This document shows positions 136-11,203 of a stretch of 11,778 nucleotides of DNA, in pieces (position 1 is the stretch's first letter; every line of letters begins with the position of its first letter). The stretch is from contig NZ_JAYKGW010000114.1 in the NCBI RefSeq assembly GCF_035285525.1, forward strand, positions 1 to 11,778, in the 5' to 3' direction. The notes beneath the pieces are model-generated. The model saw only the letters and a program-made list of their open reading frames with translations, was not told where the DNA came from and searched no databases. The position numbers were made by a program, and so were the translations under genes. Source of the DNA: Okeania sp. Lineage in GTDB: Bacteria > Cyanobacteriota > Cyanobacteriia > Cyanobacteriales > Microcoleaceae.

Positions 136-1341
136 TTGCATTTTAGTCTTCATGTTCCCAATCCCAATGGTGGCAGAATTCGGGTTTCTATGAAGGAAAA
201 CGAAGCATCAGCACCTTGGCAAACTTTAACCACTATCCGCTCTCGCTTAAATGACACTGTTTTACGCAGGGATTCCCTCGAGCTGGTCAGTGGCAATTAT
301 GATACCGACTCACATCCTGCCGCTCACGAACCCAATCAAATTGGTTTTGCCACACAAGGTTTTGAAAACTTCCACTTTGAAGTACCAGATGATTTGCGAG
401 GCAAAACTGCAACACTTCGGTTTGAGTTAGAAGGAAATACCCCCATTTATCTTGATGATGTCTTCTTTCAAAGCGTTCATCTCAAACTAGGAAATCCCAC
501 CTTGACCGATCCTGCAGATGGAGCAAACCAACAAAAAGCGAGATTTGATGTAGCTCAACCCAACAACTATTTGATTGAAAAACCACAGTATGTCTTATCT
601 TACAATAACCGCGAAAGAGGACCAAACTGGGTAAGTTACCAACTGAATAACTCCTGGATTGGTGCGCAAGAACGCAGACAGAACGAAGCGTGGGATAGGG
701 ATTTTCAACTTCTACCACCACTAGAAGGAACTCAAGGACAATGGTACACGGGGACTGGAAGACAAATTCACAGAGGACACATGACTACGAGATCGCACCG
801 AAACAGAAATCTCAAAGATCAGCAATCTACTTTTTACACTAGCAGTATGCTTCCACAGCATGCCCATAATAATTCTGACAGTTTCCAATCGGCGTGGTAT
901 AACCTCGAAGGATATGCCCGAGATCAACTTGTTTTGACCGAGGGGAAAGAACTCTATATTATATCTGGTGGATTTGGTTCGGCACCTTTACCGAATAATC
1001 CACCGATTCCTGCCAATCATCCTCTCAGAGTAAATGGTATCAACTACCCCGAGGCAACTTGGAAAGTCATCGTAGTTCTTGAACCAGGTCAGGGCGTTGC
1101 AGATATTACAGAAGACACGCGAGTTATTGGTGTGATTACGCCCAACAATGCAAGACCAACCGATTTAACGCCAGAGCAATTGGAGGCTTGGCGCAACTGG
1201 GGAGAGTGGCGTTTCAGTGTTGACGATATTGAAAGTGTAACGGGACTAAACCTCTTGTCGAACATTCCCGAAGAAATTCAAGACCAAATTGAAGAAAGGG
1301 TAGACAATGGTCCTACCGAACGAACTGGCGTTGTGTCTTAG
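136..1341 (+). CDS. DNA/RNA non-specific endonuclease (Serratia nuclease/NucA family, beta-beta-alpha-Me) preceded by part of a beta-sandwich; 5'-truncated or frameshifted paralogue of the C-terminal module of the 4913-8119 product
   Basis: 401-aa ORF. HRGH at nt 769-780, then SSMLPQHAHNN and AWYNLE, matches the DRGH / Mg-ligand Asn / Glu pattern of the Serratia-NucA family. The tail ITPNNARPTD...WRNWGEWRFSVDDIESVTGLNLLSNIPEEIQ is typical of the family. The whole ORF aligns with roughly the last 440 aa of the 1068-aa protein, e.g. TATLRFELEGNTPIYLDDVFFQSVHLKLGNPT vs PAKLTFTLEGDSEVFIDNVFFKSAHIKLGNPT, and YVLSYNNRERGPNWVSYQLN vs YTVSYNTQTKTPNWVSWQVN. Start is uncertain (TTG 136 or ATG 190); the frame is closed upstream by TAA 67-69. 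Confidence 0.8.
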   Translation: MHFSLHVPNPNGGRIRVSMKENEASAPWQTLTTIRSRLNDTVLRRDSLELVSGNYDTDSHPAAHEPNQIGFATQGFENFHFEVPDDLRGKTATLRFELEGNTPIYLDDVFFQSVHLKLGNPTLTDPADGANQQKARFDVAQPNNYLIEKPQYVLSYNNRERGPNWVSYQLNNSWIGAQERRQNEAWDRDFQLLPPLEGTQGQWYTGTGRQIHRGHMTTRSHRNRNLKDQQSTFYTSSMLPQHAHNNSDSFQSAWYNLEGYARDQLVLTEGKELYIISGGFGSAPLPNNPPIPANHPLRVNGINYPEATWKVIVVLEPGQGVADITEDTRVIGVITPNNARPTDLTPEQLEAWRNWGEWRFSVDDIESVTGLNLLSNIPEEIQDQIEERVDNGPTERTGVVS

Positions 1342-1368
1342 CAAGAGCAGTTAGCTCGTTTTCGTAGA

Positions 1369-1396
1369 AGTCGTTCCTGCTATACCAGGAACGACT
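1369..1396. terminator. Hairpin between convergent genes (possible bidirectional terminator)
   Basis: Perfect 11-bp stem AGTCGTTCCTG (1369-1379) / CAGGAACGACT (1386-1396) with 6-nt loop CTATAC. It lies between the stop of the plus-strand nuclease gene (1341) and the stop of the minus-strand PRP gene (1511). No clean U-tract on either side. Confidence 0.4.
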
Positions 1397-1510
1397 GAAA
1401 TTCGATTGATACTGCATTTTATGTTTTTTTATCAAAATCATGGCAACCAAATGCTGAGTACAACTTCCCAAAATTCGCATTTTCAGAACAACAACCTGTT
1501 TATAGTCCAT

Positions 1511-2806
1511 TCATTCCGACCAATCAGGTCCGCATACGACATATCCATCCTCAAGAATTGTGTTCAAAAAGAAAGCTCCTATCCCACAATGCCAATTCTT
1601 AGCACCTTTAAAATTAGAGACCACCAATATAGCATTCTCCGTTGCAAATCCCCTACATTCTGCTCCCTCAAATTTAGCACCACTGAGAACAGCTTCAGTA
1701 GCATCAGCGTATATGAGGTCTGCTCTAGTCAAATCTGCTCCAGTCAAATCTGCTCCAGTCAAACTTGCGTAACTGAGGTCGGCGTAACTGAGGTCGCTAC
1801 CGAGCAACTTCGCACCCCTTAAATTCGCATAACTGAGGTCGGCACAACTGAAGTTACTCATAACCATCTTGACCCCCTTTAAATTGGCATAACTAAGATT
1901 GGCACCTCTAAAATCCACAGCACCTAAATCAGCTTCAAACAAATTGATCTCACTCAAATCTGCTTCAAACAGAGATTGACCCGTAAATCTGATCCTGACA
2001 AAATTTCTTTCACCTTTAGCATAGCGTGTCAGCAACTCCCCTGCATCTATAGGAATTTTCGGATCGGCATTATATACAATTTCCGAATTCAGATTCGCAT
2101 CAGTTAGATTAACACCTTCCAATTCTGTATATTCTAGATCGACATCGCTGAAATCGGCATCAACTAAGGTGACATCAGTAAGACGGGAATAGTACATAGT
2201 CGCTTCTTTAAGGTTAGCACCGTTGAAGTTGACTCGTTCCAAAATCGTATTAGTAAAATTTGCTTCTCTGAGGTCAGCACCGCTGAAATTGGTGTCAGTA
2301 ATCTGGCAATTACTAAAATCTGCTTCTCTGAGGTCAGCAATGTTAAAGTTCGCTTGAGTTATAACACAACTGCTGAAATCGGCTTTTTGTGCATCAGTCT
2401 GACTCAGGTCAGTTCCTACCAGAATAGTATTAGCTAGGTTAGCGTCATATAGACAAGCACTACTAAGAATAGCATTACTCAAATCTGCTCCTTTTAAATT
2501 TGCTCTCAATTCTGATTCTACTGGACTCAAGCGAGCATTTCGTAAGTTAGCACCTGTAAGATTAGCATCAACTAAGGTAGCCATTTCTAAATTAGCCATT
2601 TCTAAGTTGGTCTGGCTTAGGTTAGCACCTTCCAAGCGAATACCTCTTAAAAAACCCTTTCTCAGATTTGCCCCGCTTAAGTCAGCACCAGTCAAGTTAG
2701 CATATTCCAGTTTACCACCTCCAATATCTGGCTTCAAAAGCTCGAGTTGCTGAAAATCTCTTTCCCCACGAGCGTAGCGTAACCGTAATTCTTCTGCTGG
2801 TTTCAT
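1511..2806 (-). CDS. Pentapeptide-repeat protein, two-module (431 aa)
   Basis: ATG-initiated ORF made almost entirely of A(D/N)LxX-type pentapeptides, e.g. ANLTGADLSGANLRKG and SDLSYADLSYASLTGADLTGADLTRADL. Two modules each open with a cap motif: AEELRLRYARGERDF at the N-terminus and AGELLTRYAKGERNF internally. The C-terminal tail NFKGAKNWHCGIGAFFLNTILEDGYVVCGPDWSE is paralogous to the tail of the 163-aa PRP. Confidence 0.9.
   Translation of the reverse strand: MKPAEELRLRYARGERDFQQLELLKPDIGGGKLEYANLTGADLSGANLRKGFLRGIRLEGANLSQTNLEMANLEMATLVDANLTGANLRNARLSPVESELRANLKGADLSNAILSSACLYDANLANTILVGTDLSQTDAQKADFSSCVITQANFNIADLREADFSNCQITDTNFSGADLREANFTNTILERVNFNGANLKEATMYYSRLTDVTLVDADFSDVDLEYTELEGVNLTDANLNSEIVYNADPKIPIDAGELLTRYAKGERNFVRIRFTGQSLFEADLSEINLFEADLGAVDFRGANLSYANLKGVKMVMSNFSCADLSYANLRGAKLLGSDLSYADLSYASLTGADLTGADLTRADLIYADATEAVLSGAKFEGAECRGFATENAILVVSNFKGAKNWHCGIGAFFLNTILEDGYVVCGPDWSE
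1712..1797 (-). repeat. Intragenic 15-bp tandem repeats (one pentapeptide unit each) inside the 431-aa PRP gene
   Basis: AGTCAAATCTGCTCC is identical at 1727-1741 and 1742-1756, with degenerate flanking units. CGTAACTGAGGTCGG (1768-1782) is followed by CGTAACTGAGGTCGC (1783-1797). These encode ADLTGADLTGADLTRADL and SDLSYADLSYA. Confidence 0.9.
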
Positions 2807-2892
2807 AATTTAATAATTTAATAATAAGTCAATAATTTTCTGTTTCTGAATAGTCTAGCAAAAATTATGTACCATTTTCTCAACAACCATTA

Positions 2893-3384
2893 TTACTCCC
2901 ACAGGTAAGGCCCGCGCACGAACTCTCCATCAGGAAAGACTGTTTTGCAAATTAAAGCTCCCCTACCAATGCAACAGTTTTTAGCACCTTTGAGATTGGC
3001 AGCAACTAAGATTGCCCCCTCAAGCTTACATTCGAGAAGCTCGGCTTCTTTTAAGTCCGCACCAGTGAGAATAGCTTCTCTAAGATCGGCGTAACTAAGA
3101 TTAGTATTTGTCAAGTCTGCACCACTTAGATCGGTTTGCTTCAAGTTAGCGTGACTGAGAATTGCTCCCTTAAGGTTATTGCCCAGCATTTTGGCCTGAC
3201 TCAAGTTGGCACGAGTCAGATTTGTCTTTTCAAAACTGTTCGCGCCCATGATATCTGCTTCAGATAAATTTATCTCTGTTATATCTGCTTCGCTCAGATA
3301 CGCAGATAAGTGAATGCTAGTAAAATCCCTTTCCCCTATGGCATATTGTCGAAGCAAATCTTCGGTATTCAGGTTTTTCTTCAT
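2893..3384 (-). CDS. Pentapeptide-repeat protein, single module (163 aa)
   Basis: ATG start with cap EDLLRQYAIGERDF, then pentapeptide units (ANLSQAKMLGNNLKGAILSHANLKQTDLSGADLTNTNLSYADLREAILTGADLKEAEL). Tail NLKGAKNCCIGRGALICKTVFPDGEFVRGPYLWE. A strong Shine-Dalgarno sequence lies upstream. Confidence 0.9.
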   Translation of the reverse strand: MKKNLNTEDLLRQYAIGERDFTSIHLSAYLSEADITEINLSEADIMGANSFEKTNLTRANLSQAKMLGNNLKGAILSHANLKQTDLSGADLTNTNLSYADLREAILTGADLKEAELLECKLEGAILVAANLKGAKNCCIGRGALICKTVFPDGEFVRGPYLWE

Positions 3385-3390
3385 TATTGT

Positions 3391-3397
3391 TCTCCTT
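3391..3397 (-). promoter_or_regulatory. Ribosome-binding site of the 163-aa PRP gene
   Basis: The minus strand reads AAGGAGAacaataATG, i.e. AAGGAGA six nt upstream of the ATG at 3384-3382. Confidence 0.6.
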
Positions 3398-3613
3398 TTA
3401 AAAAAAAACTAACTGGTTTTGACTTCGTATCCAATCAAATTAATTTCTCTCTGGTCAACATTGAAAACAAAAATATCTTACATAGGCTTAGAAATACTGG
3501 TATTTCCTCCCCTAAAATTAGTATTTGTGAAGGGGAAATAGGGTTGAAAATATGCTAAAATTCAGTTTTTGAAGATGTATAATTTCTGACCTCAACAGCG
3601 ATTGCCTTCAACT

Positions 3614-3877
3614 TCAATCTGGCAGAATCGTCTTACCCTCAACGACTGCACCACTAAAATCTGCATTACTTAAATTAGCGTTGTCAAAGTTGACTTCTTC
3701 TAAAATAGCCCCGCATAATTGGGCATAACTCAGATTGACTCCCTTAAGAGAAACCTGATGAAACTTAGCACCGCTGAGGTCTGCTCCTTTTGAAAGCACT
3801 ATCAGTGATGCCGTTTAAGGTGGCAAAAAGTACATAGATTTATGATGGTTCTTCCATTGTGGAAGAATCGTCTTGAT
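3614..3877 (-). pseudogene. Decayed pentapeptide-repeat gene remnants (capless 61-aa fragment plus a C-terminal tail remnant)
   Basis: Read in the same frame as the upstream 303-aa PRP, past its TAA: IKTILPQWKNHHKSMYFLPP-stop (3818-3877), which resembles the PRP-303 tail NTILPDGTVKTDPHHAFL. Then TASLIVLSKGADLSGAKFHQVSLKGVNLSYAQLCGAILEEVNFDNANLSNADFSGAVVEGKTILPD-stop (3614-3814). The ORF track starts this piece at GTG 3799. It has no RYxxGERDF cap and no ATG. Confidence 0.6.
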
Positions 3878-4789
3878 TTAATCTCCTAGCTCCCACATTT
3901 TTCTCAGAAAGGCATGATGGGGATCGGTTTTAACAGTTCCATCAGGCAATATCGTATTGTAATATACAACACCTTCATCGCTACCAGTCAAGTTTTCAGC
4001 ATTGGTCATGTCAGTACCAGTAAGATTAGCGCCATCGAAAATAATAGAAGTTAAACGAGCGTTAGTTAAATTCGCATTAGTTAAGTTAGAACCAGACCAT
4101 TTTGTATAGTCTAAATTAGCGCCACTCAAATTGACATCGGTAAAATTGGTATCACTAAAGTCGGCAGATTCTAAATTAGCATTTTCCAGATTCGCATTAC
4201 TCAGGTTGACTTTATCAAAAATAACCCTCTCCAAACTGGCACCGCTTAAGTCAACATTTCGCAAGACTATCCCGTAGAATTTTCTTTCTCCTGCCGCATA
4301 ACGTCTGAGAAACTCTTCAGCAGTCAGAACTCGGTCGGGGTCATTTTCAATCTGGCCATCTGGCATTACAGTATTGCAAAAAAGAGCATCAGTTAAATTA
4401 GCATCAGTCAAATTAGCATCAGTCAAATTAGCACCAGTCAAATTAGCACCAGTCAAATCAACGAACTTCAAAATTGTGTTAGCCAAACTTGCATATATTA
4501 GATTGGCGTAACTCAGATTTGCTCTCTCCAAATTGCTATTTCTGAAATTAGTACCAGTTAAATTCGAGTTAGTTAGAATAGTATTCAGCAGACGACAACC
4601 ATTAAGATTGGTATAACTCAAATTAGCATCAGTCAAGTCAGTACGAGTCAAATGAGCATTACTTAGATCTGCATCGCTAAGATCGATGCTCGTCAGTTCG
4701 GTATCGCTTAGATCGACTGCTTTGAGAACGATTCCGCTAAAGTCTCTTTCTCCATCGTTATATCTTTTCAAAAATTCTTGAAGTTCCAT
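3878..4789 (-). CDS. Pentapeptide-repeat protein, two-module (303 aa)
   Basis: ATG start preceded by AAGGA. Cap QEFLKRYNDGERDF, pentapeptide units, first tail NTVMPDGQIENDP, second cap AEEFLRRYAAGERKF, more units, second tail NTILPDGTVKTDP. Confidence 0.9.
   Translation of the reverse strand: MELQEFLKRYNDGERDFSGIVLKAVDLSDTELTSIDLSDADLSNAHLTRTDLTDANLSYTNLNGCRLLNTILTNSNLTGTNFRNSNLERANLSYANLIYASLANTILKFVDLTGANLTGANLTDANLTDANLTDALFCNTVMPDGQIENDPDRVLTAEEFLRRYAAGERKFYGIVLRNVDLSGASLERVIFDKVNLSNANLENANLESADFSDTNFTDVNLSGANLDYTKWSGSNLTNANLTNARLTSIIFDGANLTGTDMTNAENLTGSDEGVVYYNTILPDGTVKTDPHHAFLRKMWELGD
4386..4460 (-). repeat. Five tandem 15-bp units inside the 303-aa PRP gene
   Basis: GCATCAGTTAAATTA / GCATCAGTCAAATTA / GCATCAGTCAAATTA / GCACCAGTCAAATTA / GCACCAGTCAAATCA, contiguous over 4386-4460, encoding DLTGANLTGANLTDANLTDANLTDA. 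Confidence 0.9.
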
Positions 4790-4912
4790 AAGTTTTTCCT
4801 TGAACGCTACTACAAATTCATTGTAACACGAGCGATGCCATTACTACATCCTGACAGCAAATGAAATGATTTCAGTTCAAATAATTATAAGCGGGAGTCA
4901 TTTCTACCGGAA

Positions 4913-7900
4913 TTGAATATTTCTGAGAAACGGAATTTGCTGACTAGACCTTGGAATGGAATTGGTGATTTTAATCCGAAGCGCATCTTGACCGCAACTT
5001 GGAAGCTAGATACAGTAACGGATACAGGAAAGTGGTATGGCCACGATGGCCAAACTGAAATTTCTCTGCCCACAAGCGGTCTGCCTAACACTAACTCTAG
5101 CTTGACTCTGCCAGAAGAATTGACTTTGACTGCAGGGCAGACTTATCATTGGGCAGTTGAAGTTATCGATCGCAATGGAAATTCGGAGCTTGAGTCTCGC
5201 AGTTTCCAGACCGAAAATTCCGAACATAATCTTGACAATACTTTCAGCAGCGTCAGCGTGGTTACTCATGGCTTTAAATTGCCTACAGAAAGTCCGGGAA
5301 TACCCGATAATATTTACAACTTAGGCAATAATATCGCTGAGTCTGGTGGCGAGGGTTTAATGATGAGGTACAATCGCCAAACAGGTGGTTGGGATGCCAT
5401 TGACAAAGAGGGCCGCCTTTTGTCAGATGTTAAGATTTCTGATTATTACGGTAAACCTTTAGTGTTACTAACTGATTGGTCTTCTGATAACCAATCGTCA
5501 ATTCCTGACTCTGGTTTCAGTGAAGGAGCAGCAGATGCTTTCTTTGCTTCTCTGGTTCAACTCGACCAACAATTAGGAGGAACAGTTGCAAATATTGAGG
5601 GCAAACTGGTCAACAAACATGGTGCTGTTTTTGACTCCCCGTTACATTTTATTGGTTTCAGTCGTGGTGCTGTAGTCAATAGCGAAATGATTCAGAGGAT
5701 TGGAACTCACTTCCCCCATGCTGGAGGACCACTCAACGCGGATGGTACTCCTCAAGTGGATTCTGAAGGTTCCGAAATTCGGGATTTACAAATGACAACT
5801 ATTGACCCCCATGATTTTGAACAGCCTGGGTTTTCTTTCCCAGAATGGATCCCATTCATAGGTGGAGAAGGATTTGGTGATTTCAACGATCCAGAAGTAC
5901 AGGTTTGGGAGAATGTTACCTTTGCAGATAATTACTATCAGACTGTACCGAAGTTAGACCCTAATTTCTTAGAATTGACAGCAACGCCAGCAGGTCGCTT
6001 GATTGAGAATGCAGATTTGAATATCTTTTTGGGTACGAACTCCGCTGAAGAGAATTATGAGAATAGTCGAGCTGGTTTTACTAGGGAAACTGATGGCAAC
6101 TTCTGGCCTATTGCTCCTAGTTTTCCCTGGGAATTTGATAAGAAGTTGCCCCTAGCAGGTCGTGGTGCAGTTCACGGACGGGTGCTTTCTTGGTATGATG
6201 GTACTACTAATTTGTCGGTGACGAAATCCCCAGATGAGTTGTATCGTCGTTTGGGAGATGGACATCACAACCATTTATATGACTCAGATTTTTCGGGGGT
6301 GGCGAATCCTTGGTACACTCCAGACCATAATAAGGCTACTTTTGAGTTAGGGGATAAGAATGCACCGTGGGAAGGTATCGGTACAGGTTGGTTTTATTCA
6401 GTGCTTGGTGGTGGTAAGGATTTGCGGCCGGAGTCGAAGTTGTCGGAGCGGGTGTCTATGAGTTTTGATAATACTAGCGATCGTGAAAGTCAAGGTGATT
6501 TTGCAGTACCGACTTTGTTTAATGGTAATTTTGATGCAGTTTTTAATCCTAATGGTTTACTGCGTAATTCTCTTTCTGATGGGATTCCGGGATGGTCTGG
6601 AAGTAGTCCTTCAAACTCATCGTCTTCTGATAGTGGAAGTAGCGCCAATGTCAATTCATTAGTTGAATGGAGTAACATTGGTTTACCACTACGGTATCGG
6701 CAGGGTGCTGGTTATGATGGAACTACAGCCAACTATGCCTTGAAACTAGATAGTAATTTCCCAAAAATCACTCATAATCCTTTTGTTATACCTGAATGGG
6801 GGAATTTAAGGTTTGATGTTTATGCTCCTAAAGAAAGTGGGAAGTTGAAAGTACAACTGGAAGTTGAAGGGGCTAATATACCAGTCAAGACAATAGATTT
6901 GGCTATAGATGCTGGTACGGTTCAAATAGGAGATAAACAAAAAGTTGATAAAATCAAAGAAATATATGGAGACAATGTTAATAGTATTGGATATAGAAGA
7001 AAGGGCGGATTTGAAACCTTCCAATTTCCCTTTCAAAAACTCTCTAGCGATGAATGGAAGAAATTTATGGGAAAACCAGCTAAATTAACATTTACTTTGG
7101 AAGGAGATTCTGAAGTTTTCATAGACAATGTTTTCTTCAAAAGCGCTCACATTAAGTTAGGAAATCCGACTAATGCACGATGGGATGCGACTCAAGAAAC
7201 ACCAACAAATTTGCTAGTAGAAAAACCAGGTTATACAGTTTCTTATAACACTCAAACCAAAACACCAAACTGGGTAAGTTGGCAGGTTAACAAAACATGG
7301 ACTGTGCCAAAGAAAGCCAGACTGGGTATTGAATTTATAGACGATCCTTTCTTCTCTTTGCAATCATCCCATCCTAATTGGCCAAAAGTAAATGGAACAA
7401 TATTTACGGGCTTAGGGATGGATAGAGGTCATTTAATTCCAGACAGAGACAGAAACAGAAATCCAAAGGATACCATAGAAACTTACATGGGAAGTAATTT
7501 AATTGCACAATCAATGGATAATAATCGACGATTTACAGACATTCCATTGACTGGTTCTGCTTGGTTTAACATCGAAAAAATGATAGGCAATGATGTTGAG
7601 GCTGGAAAAGAGTATTACGTTGTCGCTGGAAGTTTAGGTAATGACTGGAGTTCACAGAAAAAAAGTAATGCACCAGAATTGCTTGAAAAGCTAATAAATC
7701 AGGGAGATACAAATCCTCAAAAATTTAACAATAATATTTCAATTCCTGAATGGACTTGGAAGAACGCGATCGCTTTACCGAAACCGGGTATGGAGGTTAC
7801 ATCAGAAGCAGAGGCATTTGTGTATATTACGCCTAATCATGCAGAACCAACAGACAATGAGTTGCCGATAGAACATCCACTCAATCAATTGTTGGGTGAA

Positions 7901-8119
7901 GAACGTGACCCTATAGAAAGTCGGGATCAATGGAGAAATCCTGAAACTTGGAGGATAGGTCTTCAACAACTTCAAGACCTTCTTAACAGCAGAAAAGACC
8001 CCCAAAATCCTGAGGAAACTGACCCTCGTTTTAACTTCCAGTTTGATTTCCTTTCTCATATTACCGATCAAGAAGTTCGAGGTAAGTTGATGAAAGACGG
8101 AGAATATGTTCCTTTTTAA
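4913..8119 (+). CDS. Large multidomain protein: N-terminal Ig/FN3-like domain, lipase-like alpha/beta-hydrolase, Ser-rich linker, beta-sandwich, C-terminal DNA/RNA non-specific endonuclease (Serratia/NucA family)
   Basis: Longest ORF in the window (1068 aa). Motifs read from the translation: LTAGQTYHWAVEVIDRNGN (beta domain, aa ~25-100); VVTHGF (nt 5264-5275 code THGF) and nucleophile elbow GFSRG (nt 5654-5668) with TTIDPHD and AVHGR as acid/His candidates (alpha/beta-hydrolase, aa ~112-470); GSSPSNSSSSDSGSS linker (~nt 6598-6657); nuclease motifs DRGH (nt 7421-7432), SNLIAQSMDNN and AWFNIE. Start codon is uncertain: TTG at 4913, with no in-frame ATG until about aa 150. No signal-peptide-like N-terminus. 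Confidence 0.85.
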   Translation: MNISEKRNLLTRPWNGIGDFNPKRILTATWKLDTVTDTGKWYGHDGQTEISLPTSGLPNTNSSLTLPEELTLTAGQTYHWAVEVIDRNGNSELESRSFQTENSEHNLDNTFSSVSVVTHGFKLPTESPGIPDNIYNLGNNIAESGGEGLMMRYNRQTGGWDAIDKEGRLLSDVKISDYYGKPLVLLTDWSSDNQSSIPDSGFSEGAADAFFASLVQLDQQLGGTVANIEGKLVNKHGAVFDSPLHFIGFSRGAVVNSEMIQRIGTHFPHAGGPLNADGTPQVDSEGSEIRDLQMTTIDPHDFEQPGFSFPEWIPFIGGEGFGDFNDPEVQVWENVTFADNYYQTVPKLDPNFLELTATPAGRLIENADLNIFLGTNSAEENYENSRAGFTRETDGNFWPIAPSFPWEFDKKLPLAGRGAVHGRVLSWYDGTTNLSVTKSPDELYRRLGDGHHNHLYDSDFSGVANPWYTPDHNKATFELGDKNAPWEGIGTGWFYSVLGGGKDLRPESKLSERVSMSFDNTSDRESQGDFAVPTLFNGNFDAVFNPNGLLRNSLSDGIPGWSGSSPSNSSSSDSGSSANVNSLVEWSNIGLPLRYRQGAGYDGTTANYALKLDSNFPKITHNPFVIPEWGNLRFDVYAPKESGKLKVQLEVEGANIPVKTIDLAIDAGTVQIGDKQKVDKIKEIYGDNVNSIGYRRKGGFETFQFPFQKLSSDEWKKFMGKPAKLTFTLEGDSEVFIDNVFFKSAHIKLGNPTNARWDATQETPTNLLVEKPGYTVSYNTQTKTPNWVSWQVNKTWTVPKKARLGIEFIDDPFFSLQSSHPNWPKVNGTIFTGLGMDRGHLIPDRDRNRNPKDTIETYMGSNLIAQSMDNNRRFTDIPLTGSAWFNIEKMIGNDVEAGKEYYVVAGSLGNDWSSQKKSNAPELLEKLINQGDTNPQKFNNNISIPEWTWKNAIALPKPGMEVTSEAEAFVYITPNHAEPTDNELPIEHPLNQLLGEERDPIESRDQWRNPETWRIGLQQLQDLLNSRKDPQNPEETDPRFNFQFDFLSHITDQEVRGKLMKDGEYVPF

Positions 8120-8175
8120 AGTGGCAGTATCTGCTCTTTGAGAACCCGATCGGTTAGGCTTTTTGAGGGATAGTC

Positions 8176-8207
8176 TGTCGGAACAACTTTTGATAATTGT
8201 TCCGACA
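8176..8207. terminator. Hairpin downstream of the large nuclease gene (possible terminator)
   Basis: Perfect 11-bp stem TGTCGGAACAA (8176-8186) / TTGTTCCGACA (8197-8207) with a 10-nt loop, 57 nt after the TAA at 8117-8119. No strong U-tract. Confidence 0.35.
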
Positions 8208-8299
8208 ATGTCCATTATAGCAATGTGCGCACTTAATATTTACAAATTCCAGGAGATGTCCAATAACTAAAAGTCTGATATTATAAGCTATTCATTCTT

Positions 8300-8327
8300 C
8301 CTGTTCCCTATTCCCTGTTGCCTGTTC
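8300..8327. repeat. STRR-like heptanucleotide tandem repeat (4 units)
   Basis: CCTGTTC CCTATTC CCTGTTG CCTGTTC, contiguous over 8300-8327. Short tandem heptamers are a known feature of heterocystous cyanobacterial intergenic DNA. Confidence 0.6.
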
Positions 8328-8351
8328 CACGGCAGCGCAGCGCTATATTTT

Positions 8352-8665
8352 TTAGGACTTACACAGAGACGCTACATATAGCGTCCAAAACTATTGCGTG
8401 GCTTTGTTGCATGAAAGTAGCGTTCTTAGCATCCATTCCGCATTAAGGGATAAATATTAAGTGGGATGGGCATCCTGCCCGTCCGAAAATATGGGCATTC
8501 CTGCCCGGTGTGAAAATATAAGAAACAGCAAACTTGCAGGATGCCTGTTCCACAAAACTATTAAAATCATCCCACATTATTTTTTGTACACCTTCTTCAT
8601 GCAACAAAGCCCTATTGCGCAATAGTTTTTTAACTCTATAAATAGTACCTTTGCGTAAGTCCTAA
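8352..8665. mobile_element. MITE-like non-coding element with nested inverted repeats (unclassified)
   Basis: Outer arms TTAGGACTTACACA (8352-8365) and TGCGTAAGTCCTAA (8652-8665) pair at 13/14 positions. AAAACTATTGCG (8387-8398) pairs with CGCAATAGTTTT (8618-8629). GGCTTTGTTGCATGAA (8400-8415) pairs with TTCATGCAACAAAGCC (8596-8611), 16/16. GTGGGATG (8461-8468) pairs with CATCCCAC (8568-8575). GGCATCCTGC (8469-8478) pairs with GCAGGATGCC (8536-8545). There is no ORF inside. Confidence 0.45.
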
Positions 8666-8674
8666 TTTTATTGT

Positions 8675-9628
8675 TTACAAAAGTTTTTCAATATTTTTAT
8701 TTGCTCTAACAGGATAATTGCTCGAACCTTGTAAAAAGAATCCGTCTTTTAAAGTTATATTGTGGAAGAAAGCTAGAGATTCACCACTGCATCTTAATTC
8801 TGCATCTTGAAAGTTGACTTCAATGAAGTGAGTGCAAGTCGTATCTGCACAGATTGTTGCTTCTCTCATATCAACATAAATAAAGCTAGCACTATTCAAC
8901 TCGCAATCCAGTTTAGCTCCTCTAAAGTCACAATTTATGAATTGGGATCCATTCCAATCCCCACTCAGGGTAGCATTACTCAAATTACAATTGCTAAAGT
9001 GGGCGCAAAACAGATTAACATCCCGTAATTCAGCACCACTGAGGTCAACTCCATGCAAAATCGCCTTTTCAAAGTTTCTTTCCCCTGCTGCATAGCGACT
9101 AAGAAGTTTTTGAGCGTCTAATCCTCTACTAGGATTAATTATTAGCTTCCCATCAGGTCTAGTGCTATAATGAACAATAGGGTCTCTTGGTATTTTGATG
9201 TCAGTTAAATTAGCATTTGTGAGATTACTACCAATAAATTGAGTTTCATCTAAATTAGCTCCACTCAAATTAGCATAACTTAGGTCAGAATTAGTAAAAT
9301 CGGCACAAATGAGATTAGCTCCGCTCAAATTAGCATAACTCAGGTTTGTACCTATGAAATAGGTGTGCCGGAGACTAGCTTTTTTGAGATTAGCTCGACT
9401 GAAATTAGCATTTCCTATATGCCCTTCTATGAATGCGCTTTCGAGACTAGCGCCACTTAAATTGATATCCATCAGGAGGGCATCAAAAAAATAACATTTT
9501 CTTAAATCTATACCCGAAAAATCTCTCTCACCATTTTCATACTGTTCTGAGAAATTATCTTCAATTTGTCTTCTGGAAAAATCTCTCTCAACATTTTCAT
9601 GCTGTTCTAAGAATTTCTCTTGATCCAT
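8675..9628 (-). CDS. Pentapeptide-repeat protein, two-module with duplicated N-terminal cap (317 aa)
   Basis: ATG start. Duplicated cap FLEQHENVERDF / FSEQYENGERDF, then units such as GTNLSYANLSGANLICADFTNSDLSYANLSGANLDETQFIGSNLTNANL. Linker STRPDGKLIINP, second cap AQKLLSRYAAGERNF, then a more divergent Cys-rich second module ending NITLKDGFFLQG. Confidence 0.9.
   Translation of the reverse strand: MDQEKFLEQHENVERDFSRRQIEDNFSEQYENGERDFSGIDLRKCYFFDALLMDINLSGASLESAFIEGHIGNANFSRANLKKASLRHTYFIGTNLSYANLSGANLICADFTNSDLSYANLSGANLDETQFIGSNLTNANLTDIKIPRDPIVHYSTRPDGKLIINPSRGLDAQKLLSRYAAGERNFEKAILHGVDLSGAELRDVNLFCAHFSNCNLSNATLSGDWNGSQFINCDFRGAKLDCELNSASFIYVDMREATICADTTCTHFIEVNFQDAELRCSGESLAFFHNITLKDGFFLQGSSNYPVRANKNIEKLL
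9254..9345 (-). repeat. 60-bp-period duplication (one beta-helix coil) inside the 317-aa PRP gene
   Basis: ATTAGCTCC(A/G)CTCAAATTAGCATAACT(T/C)AGGT occurs at 9254-9285 and 9314-9345, identical at 30 of 32 positions. Both copies encode (N/D)LSYANLSGANL. Confidence 0.85.
9516..9615 (-). repeat. 60-bp-period duplication of the cap-coding segment of the 317-aa PRP gene
   Basis: GAAAAATCTCTCTCA(C/A)CATTTTCAT(A/G)CTGTTCT(G/A)AGAA(A/T)TT occurs at 9516-9555 and 9576-9615. The copies encode FSEQYENGERDFS and FLEQHENVERDFS. Confidence 0.85.
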
Positions 9629-9870
9629 AACTTGTCTTCCAATATATCTATCTCTACATTATCAACTATAGTCAAAACTAACTATACAAGCAATCATTAA
9701 TTTTAAGTTAGATATAGCTCTGCCCTCGGGGTTTTATCAAGTTCTTCCCAAAGATTATCTTAATGATACTGGAGAAAATATAACGTTTATATCTCTTCGT
9801 ACTGACATTCCTGATGCTCCATTCGATCCTTAATTTCTTTCCATAACAAGAAAGTATTTTGAAGGGAAAG

Positions 9871-9909
9871 AAAATAGCAATCCTATTACAGTAGGGGGAT
9901 TGCTATTTT
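9871..9909 (-). terminator. Intrinsic-terminator-like hairpin
   Basis: Stem AAAATAGCAATCC (9871-9883) / GGATTGCTATTTT-type arm (9897-9909), including the perfect 10-bp core ATAGCAATCC / GGATTGCTAT, with a 13-nt loop. There are T-runs on both strands. It sits 6 nt downstream of the TAG (9916-9918) of the minus-strand 90-aa ORF. Confidence 0.5.
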
Positions 9910-9915
9910 TTCTAA

Positions 9916-10188
9916 CTATTTATTGTTACATCCATCGTTACAAATGCTGCCATCAGGCAAGATCGTATTGCACAAAATAGCACCTCTTAGATCGACTCGT
10001 TTAGGTTGATTATATAGCAATGAGCGCTGGCATCTTTGCATGCTACGAATATCTTCATTTGTAACATAAGCTCCTACTACATGACTGATATTTTTGATGT
10101 GCGATAGCTTCGCTGTGCCTCCGGCAATCGCAACTCGGTCCCCCTGTCGTGAGCCAAATATGTTTTTCTCTGCCAGATATGACATCAC
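9916..10188 (-). pseudogene. Probable remnant of a pentapeptide-repeat gene (only the C-terminal tail is recognisable)
   Basis: The 90-aa ORF ends RVDLRGAILCNTILPDGSICNDGCNNK, matching the TILPDG tail of the neighbouring PRPs. The upstream part has no cap motif, contains only weak units (GAYVTNEDIRS), and is occupied by a copy of a 31-bp dispersed repeat. Confidence 0.4.
10101..10131. repeat. 31-bp direct repeat, copy 1
   Basis: GCGATAGCTTCGCTGTGCCTCCGGCAATCGC, identical to 10196-10226. Similarity continues for 8 more nt with two mismatches (AACTCGGT vs GTCTCGGT). Confidence 0.85.
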
Positions 10189-10337: not shown

Positions 10338-11203
10338 TCAATTGACTGCTGCATCAACACAGTCTCTAAAATTGTCAAATTCCTTTATTCTTTGTCTAAT
10401 CCAATTTTTTAATACAAACCACCAACGTTCTATCTTATTAAAATTTGGTGATTAGGGTGGTAAATACCAGATTTGACACCCTTTCTTGGCCACTAATTCT
10501 TCTATATAAATTGATTTATGAAACGTTGCATTATCTAATATGATCACTTGTCTTGGTTGTAATTTTGGTAGTAAACAATTTTCCAACCAGTTTTCAAATA
10601 AGTCACGATTACAACTTCGGTGTAAATGTTAAAGGAGCAAACATTGGGGAATTGATTTATCGCTGCCACCCGTCCTTACTCTCTCAGTTCTTTTTCCTGA
10701 CTTCATACCTGCTACTCTTTTCCCTTTAATTCCATAACCATAAGGATAATCTTCTCGATTATCTATTCCAGTTTCATCTACATAAACAATGTCTTTCTTG
10801 TCTATTTGATGAGTGTTTAAAGATAAATTCTTCTCTTTCTAGTACGTCTCTTTCTTGATAACCATATGTTTTTTTTTACGAGTAAAACCAATTTTTTTTA
10901 AACCTCTACCAATAGTAAAACGACTACAATTTCCCCATTTTCCAGCCATTTGTTTTTGAGTTTGATCGTGATTAGCCTCAACAAATTTTTCAAATTCTTC
11001 CCAATCTTTAATTTTAGATTTTTGAGGAGGAGGTACATTTGCCTTAGAGGCTATTGAGCCTGTGGTTAAATATATATCTCGCCATTGATGAAGAGTAGGC
11101 CGACTTATACTTAATAAACGACTCAGATAACTGATAGACATACCATTAATAATCAGATTAATAGCCCGTCAAATCCCAAATCTTGACTGTAAGGATGTAC
11201 CAT
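10338..11203 (-). mobile_element. Degraded IS630/Tc1-mariner-family transposase gene (pseudogene); element ends not defined
   Basis: Minus-strand reading starts with MVHPYSQDL... from the ATG at 11203-11201, then frameshifts into the 100-aa HTH-like ORF (MSISYLSRLLSISRPTLHQWRDIY...). After the TAG at 10839-10841 the same frame continues: ...DIVYVDETGIDNREDYPYGYGIKGKRVAGMKSGKRTERV...(local frameshifts, TAA 10629-10631)...SCNRDLFENWLENCLLPKLQPRQVIILDNATFHKSIYIEELVAKKGCQIWYLPP-TAA(10452-10454)-SPNFNKIERWWFVLKNWIRQRIKEF...VN-stop (10338-10340). The D (VYVDETG), D (ILDNATFH) and E (NKIERWW) layout is typical of IS630. Confidence 0.8.

Follow-up and report, generated by a model that had tools for sequence, protein, structure and literature searches.

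Pentapeptide-repeat proteins (PRPs), defined in 1998 and most abundant in cyanobacteria, are beta-helices of the size of B-DNA that bind DNA enzymes (MfpA, Qnr), and some of them, McbG and AlbG, give self-immunity to DNA-directed toxins. Nucleases of the NucA type are toxic when retained in the cell, and the active site of NucA is blocked by the inhibitor NuiA (2O3B). Here we describe a locus in which the two kinds of proteins are encoded side by side. The window is a whole 11,778-bp contig of Okeania sp., a marine filamentous cyanobacterium, and negative results given for the window cover this contig only. On the plus strand it carries two open reading frames (ORFs) with the Endonuclease_NS domain of NucA-type nucleases, ORF1 at 136-1341 and a large ORF at 4913-8119 (Pfam); on the minus strand it carries PRP ORFs of 431, 163, 61 (a fragment), 303 and 317 aa and one remnant (Pfam, tblastn). 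These ORFs had been reported by a first-pass annotation made from the sequence alone, with which both the ORF list and the Pfam check agree. Comparison with related loci leads us to think that the window is probably an island of cassettes from a system resembling polymorphic toxins, with PRPs serving as cognate immunity proteins.

In the polymorphic toxins described so far (CdiA-CT/CdiI, Rhs-CT/RhsI, MafB/MafI; PMC3482391, PMC4436062), a large multidomain protein combines a body that is conserved with a short conserved junction motif and a C-terminal toxin that can be exchanged; the partner specific to the tip is encoded directly 3', and truncated orphan tip-partner cassettes and multi-partner arrays occur. 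All of these are present in the system described here. In contrast to them, the partner here is a PRP beta-helix encoded mostly in convergent orientation, the carrier body is different, and so is the junction motif, ..DNVFF. In the polymorphic-toxin catalogue (Zhang et al. 2012, PMC3482391) the word 'pentapeptide' is absent, the immunity proteins of Tox-NucA are Imm36, SUKH and NTF2, and no cyanobacteria are given for Tox-NucA. In the operons of pore-forming colicins the immunity gene likewise lies on the opposite strand directly 3' of the toxin gene and is independently expressed; however, this layout is confined to the pore-formers, nuclease colicins co-transcribe their immunity gene, and the proteins are unrelated.

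In the Anabaena pair NucA/NuiA (1ZM8, 2O3B), NucA is the closest relative of the tip in both sequence and fold, and by analogy a dedicated intracellular inhibitor of the active site would be expected. Unlike in that pair, the nuclease here is not a small secreted enzyme but forms the C-terminal end of a giant protein; the window lacks a NuiA homologue, and the candidate inhibitor has an unrelated fold. With MfpA, Qnr, McbG and AlbG the PRPs described here share the acidic right-handed quadrilateral beta-helix of B-DNA size and, on the immunity reading, a DNA-binding enzyme as the target and a link to self-immunity to DNA-directed toxins. Those proteins shield gyrase from small-molecule or peptide poisons, whereas the presumed target here is a nuclease toxin; moreover, the window PRPs score far under the Qnr and MfpA cut-offs, and their ELLRRYAAGERDF cap is common to Np275/Np276 and HetL-type proteins. 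A survey of His-Me finger nucleases noted YjbI-like PRP genes beside proteobacterial GH-E toxins, in a nuclease- or ART-type context, and assigned them no immunity role (PMC5714182). In the literature on type VI secretion systems (T6SS) PRPs figure as parts of effectors or adaptors (PMC10933656), and an antitoxin of a type VII secretion system (T7SS) in Mycobacterium chelonae is annotated as a PRP in a passing mention (preprint 10.64898/2026.07.13.738213). The GH-E-linked PRPs and the T7SS antitoxin belong to other phyla, toxin families and delivery systems, and they are passing remarks with the role undemonstrated. A 2021 review ties no PRP to a nuclease and calls the biochemical functions of cyanobacterial PRPs 'almost completely unknown' (PMC8145042); nothing further was found in the literature on PRPs as nuclease inhibitors or DNase immunity proteins, or in connection with NucA/NuiA. 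The system is best placed as a variant of polymorphic toxin-immunity systems with a PRP immunity fold, similar to NucA/NuiA in its presumed working and not a member of that pair.

The association was first seen in the neighbourhoods of two homologues, where PRP genes read from the other strand repeatedly came after a nuclease gene; many neighbours without a precomputed Pfam label were identified as PRPs by hmmscan. For the survey, one genome per species was scanned with an alignment of the pre-toxin and nuclease regions, yielding 77 loci (these and the other loci compared are numbered with the prefix L below). Nuclease domains were called by hidden Markov models and PRPs by a heuristic for runs of pentads, with overlaps resolved against antisense false positives. 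The count was made on the 74 genes that end in a nuclease tip and are followed by at least 800 bp of sequence; they come from 37 species-level assemblies, all of Oscillatoria-type filamentous cyanobacteria. The heuristic found a PRP ORF at most 600 bp downstream of 62 of the 74, which is a lower bound because it missed about 10% (irregular PRPs); after inspection, a downstream PRP is present for approximately 69-70 of them. Among the 12 misses were seven unrecognised PRPs, one transposase inserted between the nuclease and the PRP, and one assembly gap. L052 and a fragment in L063 are the sole tip genes without any downstream PRP, and for an orphan fragment in L014 the nearest PRP lies about 700 bp off. 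Loci L001, L003, L081, L082 and L083 were checked by hand.

The spacing between nuclease and PRP is 8-300 bp, and 56 of the 62 pairs are convergent against six co-directional ones (P = 3e-11), the latter with gaps of 8-24 bp like those of classical toxin-immunity operons. Thus the convergent layout, entered as a caveat in the first-pass annotation, recurs as a conserved hallmark of the pairing. In the 1.5 kb downstream the density of PRPs is 6.8 per 10 kb versus 0.95 per 10 kb in the background (P ~1e-64), even though the local background is deliberately inflated by PRP arrays. In contrast to the tip genes, none of 13 relatives whose nuclease domain is internal has a downstream PRP (Fisher P = 5e-9); these relatives are giant proteins from Nostocales, Pleurocapsales, Prochloron and others. 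The enrichment of PRP genes near Endonuclease_NS genes, a check set beforehand, turned out strongly positive (62/74 vs 0/13), with a specificity beyond what had been expected. The immunity families known for Tox-NucA (Imm36/DUF600, SUKH and NTF2) had no Pfam match among the neighbours checked in L001, L003, L081 and L082, which were all PRPs, and genes for DUF2169, VgrG or PAAR were found neither in the window nor in the annotated neighbourhoods. Giant proteins of Nostocales and Pleurocapsales (up to 5,784 aa; L008, L026, L036, L041, L061, L064 and L066), all without a neighbouring PRP, continue after the internal nuclease with long runs of five-residue repeats of the [ST]Q[IV]G/S type and a C-terminal HExxH metallopeptidase-like domain. 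The pentad tails of the Nostocales giant proteins were considered as possible nuclease-PRP fusions and rejected, their repeat being of the [ST]Q[IV]G type and not A(D/N)LXX.

The two partners also vary together. Pairwise similarity of the nucleases is correlated with that of the PRPs (Mantel Spearman r = 0.42, reached by none of 2,000 permutations), and the correlation between body and PRP is weaker (0.29). In 35 of 68 pairs, the other locus that holds the closest nuclease also supplies the top-ranking PRP, compared to about one expected by chance. Cassettes that lie next to each other in a genome mostly have different nucleases and different PRPs, and alike nucleases go with alike PRPs. At the nucleotide level, two parts of the window, 6622-8218 (the last ~500 codons of the large ORF and 100 bp beyond) and 8665-9650 (PRP-317), are 86-92% identical to three cassette copies of Okeania sp. 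KiyG1 (L004), while the body of the large ORF has no nucleotide similarity to that genome. In normalised scores, the DRGH-type tip of the window matches the L004 nuclease at 0.89, and the PRP of that nuclease is the rank-1 match of PRP-317 at 0.76. A real functional coupling of the nuclease tip and the PRP is, in our estimation, nearly certain.

The tips are carried by a family of large proteins, most homologues having 1,100-1,860 aa and neighbours up to 3,078 aa, in Microcoleus, Tychonema, Okeania, Phormidium and Kamptonema. Many of them have a lactonase-type beta-propeller, cadherin or immunoglobulin (Ig)-like domains, or DUF4114, which are typical of extracellular proteins. In the majority of cases the tip is a complete NucA/Endonuclease_NS nuclease that retains the catalytic DRGH, N and E residues. 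The body is 43-65% identical across homologues and the tip 25-26%; in individual proteins, the overall and tip identities are 55% and 26% (P0003), 50% and 25% (P0004), and 43% and 26% (P0057). In P0002 the body is 65% identical and the protein splits off right after VYLDNIFF into an ART-PolyVal-like tip (Pfam E 6e-7, slightly below the cut-off), which is followed 8 bp on by a co-directional 71-aa ORF, unrelated to PRPs and without a Pfam match. P0016 has the carrier body without the nuclease and ends in a different region with a QELGHNFG (HExxH-like) motif; because this region is unrelated and lacks the DNVFF junction, P0016 counts merely as a consistent example. P0045 was tried as a non-nuclease control and rejected, being the front part of a split nuclease gene. 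Truncated short nuclease ORFs, each with its own downstream gene, are common after full-length genes (L001, L003, L004, L016 and L044), and such sets fit the published definition of orphan modules (PMC4436062). The family thus shows the features by which polymorphic toxins are recognised: a conserved N-terminal region with alternative C-terminal toxins, a tip-specific gene directly downstream, and orphan tip cassettes.

Several further observations concern this family. The combination of the carrier body, an ART-like tip and a conserved co-directional ORF of about 65-71 aa within ~10 bp is seen in L081 (10594-11294), L107 (5645-6592) and L111 (2928-3875), with two copies in L107/L111, and homologues are present in L006, L007 and L074; the small ORF is a candidate for a new immunity family directed against the ART toxin. 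In L082 a gene for a 680-aa ankyrin-repeat protein (4406-6448) lies co-directionally 46 bp past P0016. In L012, L030, L045, L058, L059, L068 and L077 the conserved protein sequence extends up to the upstream stop, and the first Met comes 250-340 codons later. Finally, an RHS-repeat gene (L083, 15972-18331) and genes for STAND/AAA NTPases (L001, 18557-25388) adjoin nuclease-PRP arrays, which suggests conflict-system islands.

As judged by alignment with this family, both nuclease ORFs of the window are 5'-truncated C-terminal cassettes of large multidomain proteins. Both match Endonuclease_NS (PF01223) far above the gathering cut-off of 23 bits, with 124.1 bits for ORF1 (E 9e-36) and 79.8 bits for the large ORF (aa 769-977, E 3e-22). 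ORF1 (136-1341, plus strand) has stops directly upstream, and its homology to full-length relatives begins at about nt 130, corresponding to aa 632 of the large ORF, with aa 632-981 of which it aligns at 31% identity. It appears to be an orphan toxin cassette in which the last part of the pre-toxin beta-sandwich (~136-474) precedes an HRGH-type NucA-like tip that is complete (~475-1341); tips of this type are also found at the end of the 1452-aa P0040 and of an orphan in L070 (normalised score 0.78). The large gene (4913-8119, plus strand) encodes 1068 aa; its residue 1 corresponds to residue 787 of the 1689-aa P0002 at 65% identity, and the similarity persists for about 9 codons 5' of the TTG start until a stop codon (4862-4864) interrupts it. 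The lack of a signal peptide in the nuclease ORFs, noted in the first-pass annotation, holds for the ORFs as called; as a clue to localisation it says nothing, because both ORFs are 5'-truncated.

The large ORF consists of an alpha/beta-hydrolase-like body (~5240-6050), the pre-toxin beta-sandwich (~6734-7144, ending in VFIDNVFF), the DRGH-type tip (7145-~7990) and a tail; throughout the family the beta-sandwich closes with the conserved motif [VIY][YF][LI]D[ND][VI]FF. An AlphaFold2 model computed with 46 homologues has a mean predicted local distance difference test score (pLDDT) of 75.7, and 70.5 for the body (aa 1-636). The modelled tip has the fold of Anabaena NucA (1ZM8/2O3B; E 1e-16, TM score 0.86), and NucA is its best sequence match (E 1e-22); the alignment opens at SAHIKLGNPT, opposite the N-terminal SVHLLLGNPS of the NucA chain in the crystal. 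The catalytic motifs reported at the outset (HRGH..NN..NLE and DRGH..DNN..NIE) were both found again, the former as the catalytic set of ORF1. In the large ORF, DRGH, DNN and the E of WFNIE align with catalytic and metal residues of NucA, and the 46 homologues show no variation at G839, H840, N862 and D853 and hardly any at E888; the NucA-type tip is apparently active. The body gave weak matches to alpha/beta-hydrolases and lipases (E ~1e-4), and its module at aa ~110-380 has a conserved GFSRG nucleophile elbow, with conserved DPHD and H421 positions; the module could be a second enzymatic activity of the carrier.

PF00805 was found in five window ORFs (E 5e-77 to 2e-15), which have in-register pentad runs of 10-27, more than the eight contiguous A(D/N)LXX-type repeats required of a PRP. 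A tblastn search with 68 PRPs placed PRP-like coding exclusively on the minus strand, at 1459-2851, 2872-4840 and 8645-9658, with a C-terminal remnant at 9925-10086. PRP-431 (1511-2806, two modules, PF00805 E 5e-77) is convergent to ORF1 with a gap of 169 bp, has a net charge of -25 and an isoelectric point (pI) of 4.5, and is the candidate cognate immunity gene of ORF1; its C-terminal module shares 38% identity with the PRP that accompanies the ORF1-type nuclease of L070 (Oscillatoria princeps). PRP-163 (2893-3384, one module, E 2e-30) is of the same type as this C-terminal module and is 47-53% identical to nuclease-adjacent PRPs of L070 and L044; its nearest solved structures are Np275/Np276 and HetL, and it is a candidate extra or orphan immunity gene. 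PRP-303 (3878-4789, two modules, E 5e-62), a candidate orphan immunity gene, has no cognate nuclease within the window and is 77% identical to a PRP in a multi-PRP array 3' of a nuclease gene in L042. PRP-317 (8675-9628, two modules, E 7e-37) is the candidate cognate immunity gene of the DRGH-type tip. The count of caps with helices (2+1+2+2) reproduces the seven intact beta-helix modules claimed earlier. Instead of the at least three decayed modules counted with them, two clear ones were located, a decayed PRP gene at 3536-3826 and the remnant at 9925-10086. The former (extent from tblastn; ORF 3614-3799, 61 aa, E 2e-15) shares 74% identity with a stretch of a 146-aa PRP segment in the multi-PRP array of L042, and the latter matches in tblastn the C-terminal ends of nuclease-linked PRPs such as L044_13233 (76% over 21 aa) and L044_16863 (43% over 54 aa).

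Orphan cassettes and multi-PRP arrays of this kind fit the earlier idea that growth and decay of the array reflect diversification of toxin and immunity. Against the NCBIfam Qnr and MfpA families the best scores of the window PRPs were 87 and 76 bits, the cut-offs being 240-500 and 360. NuiA, Imm36/DUF600, SUKH and Imm-NTF2 had no match in any window ORF (profiles; for NuiA, small intergenic ORFs were included to E 0.1), in agreement with the earlier statement that no NuiA-type inhibitor accompanies the nucleases. Perfect or near-perfect 15-bp tandem repeats occur within PRP genes at 4385-4458 (PRP-303, 4.9 copies of one pentapeptide unit), 1719-1796 and 2572-2606, and suggest that the length of the PRP helix changes through slippage or recombination.

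These data may be brought together as follows. The giant carrier would be exported and its exchangeable C-terminal tip delivered as a toxin. Each nuclease tip is paired with its own acidic PRP gene, directly 3' and encoding no signal peptide. Within the cytoplasm of producer and kin cells, the PRP would bind the tip and keep it from reaching DNA. The probable route is that the B-DNA-sized beta-helix acts as a substrate mimic, comparable to NuiA plugging the NucA active site. Because the PRP genes are mostly on the opposite strand, they need transcription of their own, and such a layout would uncouple expression of the immunity gene from that of the toxin gene. In the window the pairs would be ORF1 with PRP-431, perhaps also with PRP-163, and the 1068-aa ORF with PRP-317, and the further intact and decayed PRPs would be orphan immunity genes. 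That adjacent PRPs are inhibitors or immunity proteins, as suggested by the first-pass annotation, is supported by the adjacency, by the co-variation and by the tip swap that brings a different downstream gene, and we consider this role likely. We are more hesitant about DNA mimicry by the PRP in the nuclease cleft, which we propose tentatively. Likewise conceivable, although we would not count on it, is a more general role: PRP beta-helices may be a programmable DNA-mimic immunity scaffold, and much of the unexplained multiplication of PRPs in filamentous cyanobacteria may consist of cognate or orphan immunity genes against NucA-type polymorphic toxins that serve kin discrimination between filaments, with each PRP surface tuned to the DNA-binding groove of one nuclease variant.

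The nuclease-linked PRPs lack a signal peptide, as suits a cytoplasmic partner, and have the ELLRRYAAGERDF cap at the start in at least 62 of 68 cases. A number of points weigh against this immunity reading. A reverse test was made by a metagenome scan with the cap motif EL[LY][RE]RYAAG, which gave 80 PRP loci. An ORF with a nuclease domain was present in 13 of the 80, including 7 of the 11 best-matching, and in 4 of the 34 that are flanked by at least 1.5 kb on both sides, so the PRP fold is not dedicated to a nuclease role. Thus a PRP can be predicted from the nuclease tip, but a nuclease cannot be predicted from the PRP fold or the cap (about 12-16% linked). The PRP partners are acidic (median pI 4.7), but this is weak evidence for DNA mimicry, acidity being shared by the nuclease domains (median pI 5.4). 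The P values of the survey overstate significance because the loci are phylogenetically non-independent; the effect size of the adjacency does not hinge on them. Most polymorphic-toxin immunity genes are co-directional with the toxin gene, and the opposite-strand immunity of colicins belongs to pore-formers and not to nucleases (Jamet & Nassif 2015, PMC4436062). The N-termini of the homologues, whose start sites are uncertain, showed neither a Sec signal nor a known trafficking domain, and no secretion or export genes were seen in the inspected flanks. Finally, both toxin ORFs of the window are truncated and may be unexpressed.

Ten convergent neighbours of PRP loci without a nuclease encode RecJ, EF-G, a phosphorylase, tetratricopeptide-repeat (TPR) proteins and the like; in L092, L096, L163 and others, PRPs with the ELLRRYAAGERDF cap lie beside housekeeping genes (RecJ, EF-G, purine/uridine phosphorylase). 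Because such PRPs adjoin housekeeping genes, the ELLRRYAAGERDF cap, present also in Np275/Np276, is a general feature of cyanobacterial PRPs. The same observation is what favours chance co-location, PRP genes being abundant in cyanobacteria and those with this cap being widespread and mostly beside unrelated housekeeping genes. Set against it are the 62-70 of 74 tips with a PRP versus 0 of 13 internal relatives, the fixed spacing and orientation, and the co-variation of the partners, by which chance can be counted as refuted as far as comparative genomics reaches; we give it almost no credence. More serious is the view that the carriers are secreted nutritional enzymes or degrade extracellular DNA, and that the PRP inhibits the nuclease merely to shield the producer before export, with no conflict between strains. 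The nearest relative of the tip is indeed the secreted nutritional nuclease NucA, the body resembles an alpha/beta-hydrolase, and no recognised toxin-delivery machinery is present in the inspected neighbourhoods. However, differing cassette types lie side by side in one genome, tip-PRP modules occur as orphans and PRPs in multi-PRP arrays, an ART-like domain can stand in place of the nuclease tip and then has another small partner, and the body is more conserved than the tip. Since cassette diversity, tip exchange and a conserved body mark diversifying conflict systems and not housekeeping exoenzymes, this explanation is disfavoured, and we regard it as unlikely.

The orphans and arrays bear also on the proposal that PRPs do not inhibit the nuclease but act as chaperones or adaptors, specific to the tip, that help it to fold, to be exported or to become active. 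PRPs survive in them without a full-length toxin, as in the window, and therefore suit immunity genes and not export helpers. In addition, they co-vary with the toxic tip and not with the conserved body, and neither DUF2169 nor a secretion gene lies alongside in the inspected loci. The proposal draws on the PRP domains in T6SS effector and adaptor contexts (DUF2169/PRP; TseG with a YjbI-type PRP domain; PMC10933656) and on the PRPs beside GH-E His-Me toxins, to which no immunity role was assigned (PMC5714182); we find it distinctly improbable. Still less probable is an intracellular module of the abortive-infection or toxin-antitoxin kind, in which loss of a labile PRP would free a cytoplasmic nuclease. 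It would account for window ORFs without a signal peptide and for the one related locus that stands beside STAND/AAA NTPase genes, but the window ORFs have lost their N-termini through truncation, the domains found in their full-length relatives (cadherin, Ig-like, DUF4114 and beta-propeller) are those typical of exported proteins, and there was no PADLOC match for the window proteins and no phage genes nearby.

The near-obligate and tip-specific pairing points, for one subset of PRPs, to a concrete function that can be tested at little cost. If the immunity reading is true, a new fold would be added to the immunity proteins of polymorphic toxins, cyanobacteria would join the range of Tox-NucA, and these would be the first PRPs aimed at a nuclease instead of a topoisomerase. 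It would also provide a route to strain-level conflict in the mat- and bloom-forming Microcoleus, Okeania and Tychonema. Should the DNA-mimic mechanism hold, the cassettes would be naturally diversified nuclease/inhibitor pairs for studies of specificity, and orthogonal kill-switch parts for cyanobacterial biotechnology.

Other features of the window concern the region between the second pair and the right end. A hairpin with an 11-bp stem (8176-8207, no strand assigned) lies 57 nt past the stop of the large nuclease gene, with dG -20.3 kcal/mol and z -4.3; it is 100% identical in the three L004 copies, the flanks of which are 86-92% identical, and it is a candidate shared terminator that may end both convergent transcripts. 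The adjoining ~446 bp (8219-8664) are missing from the three KiyG1 cassettes, where the 3' flank of the nuclease meets the PRP stop. This segment has nested inverted repeats (8352-8390/8627-8665, TTAGGACTTAC..., and 8400-8415/8596-8611) and a 27-bp tandem repeat (8466-8519), and from these repeats it looks like an insertion of the miniature inverted-repeat transposable element (MITE) type between the convergent genes. A scan for sigma-70 promoters and terminators gave sites not above those in shuffled sequences and is uninformative on independent transcription. No match was obtained for six window proteins to PADLOC defence models, for the window in Rfam, or for the ORF at 9916-10188, which covers the PRP remnant, in Pfam; a plasmid collection held no near match to the window. 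The right end of the window is occupied by a decayed transposase of the IS630 family (10452-11141, minus strand), its helix-turn-helix part (10839-11141) and a DDE_3 fragment (10452-10586) lying in separate short ORFs.

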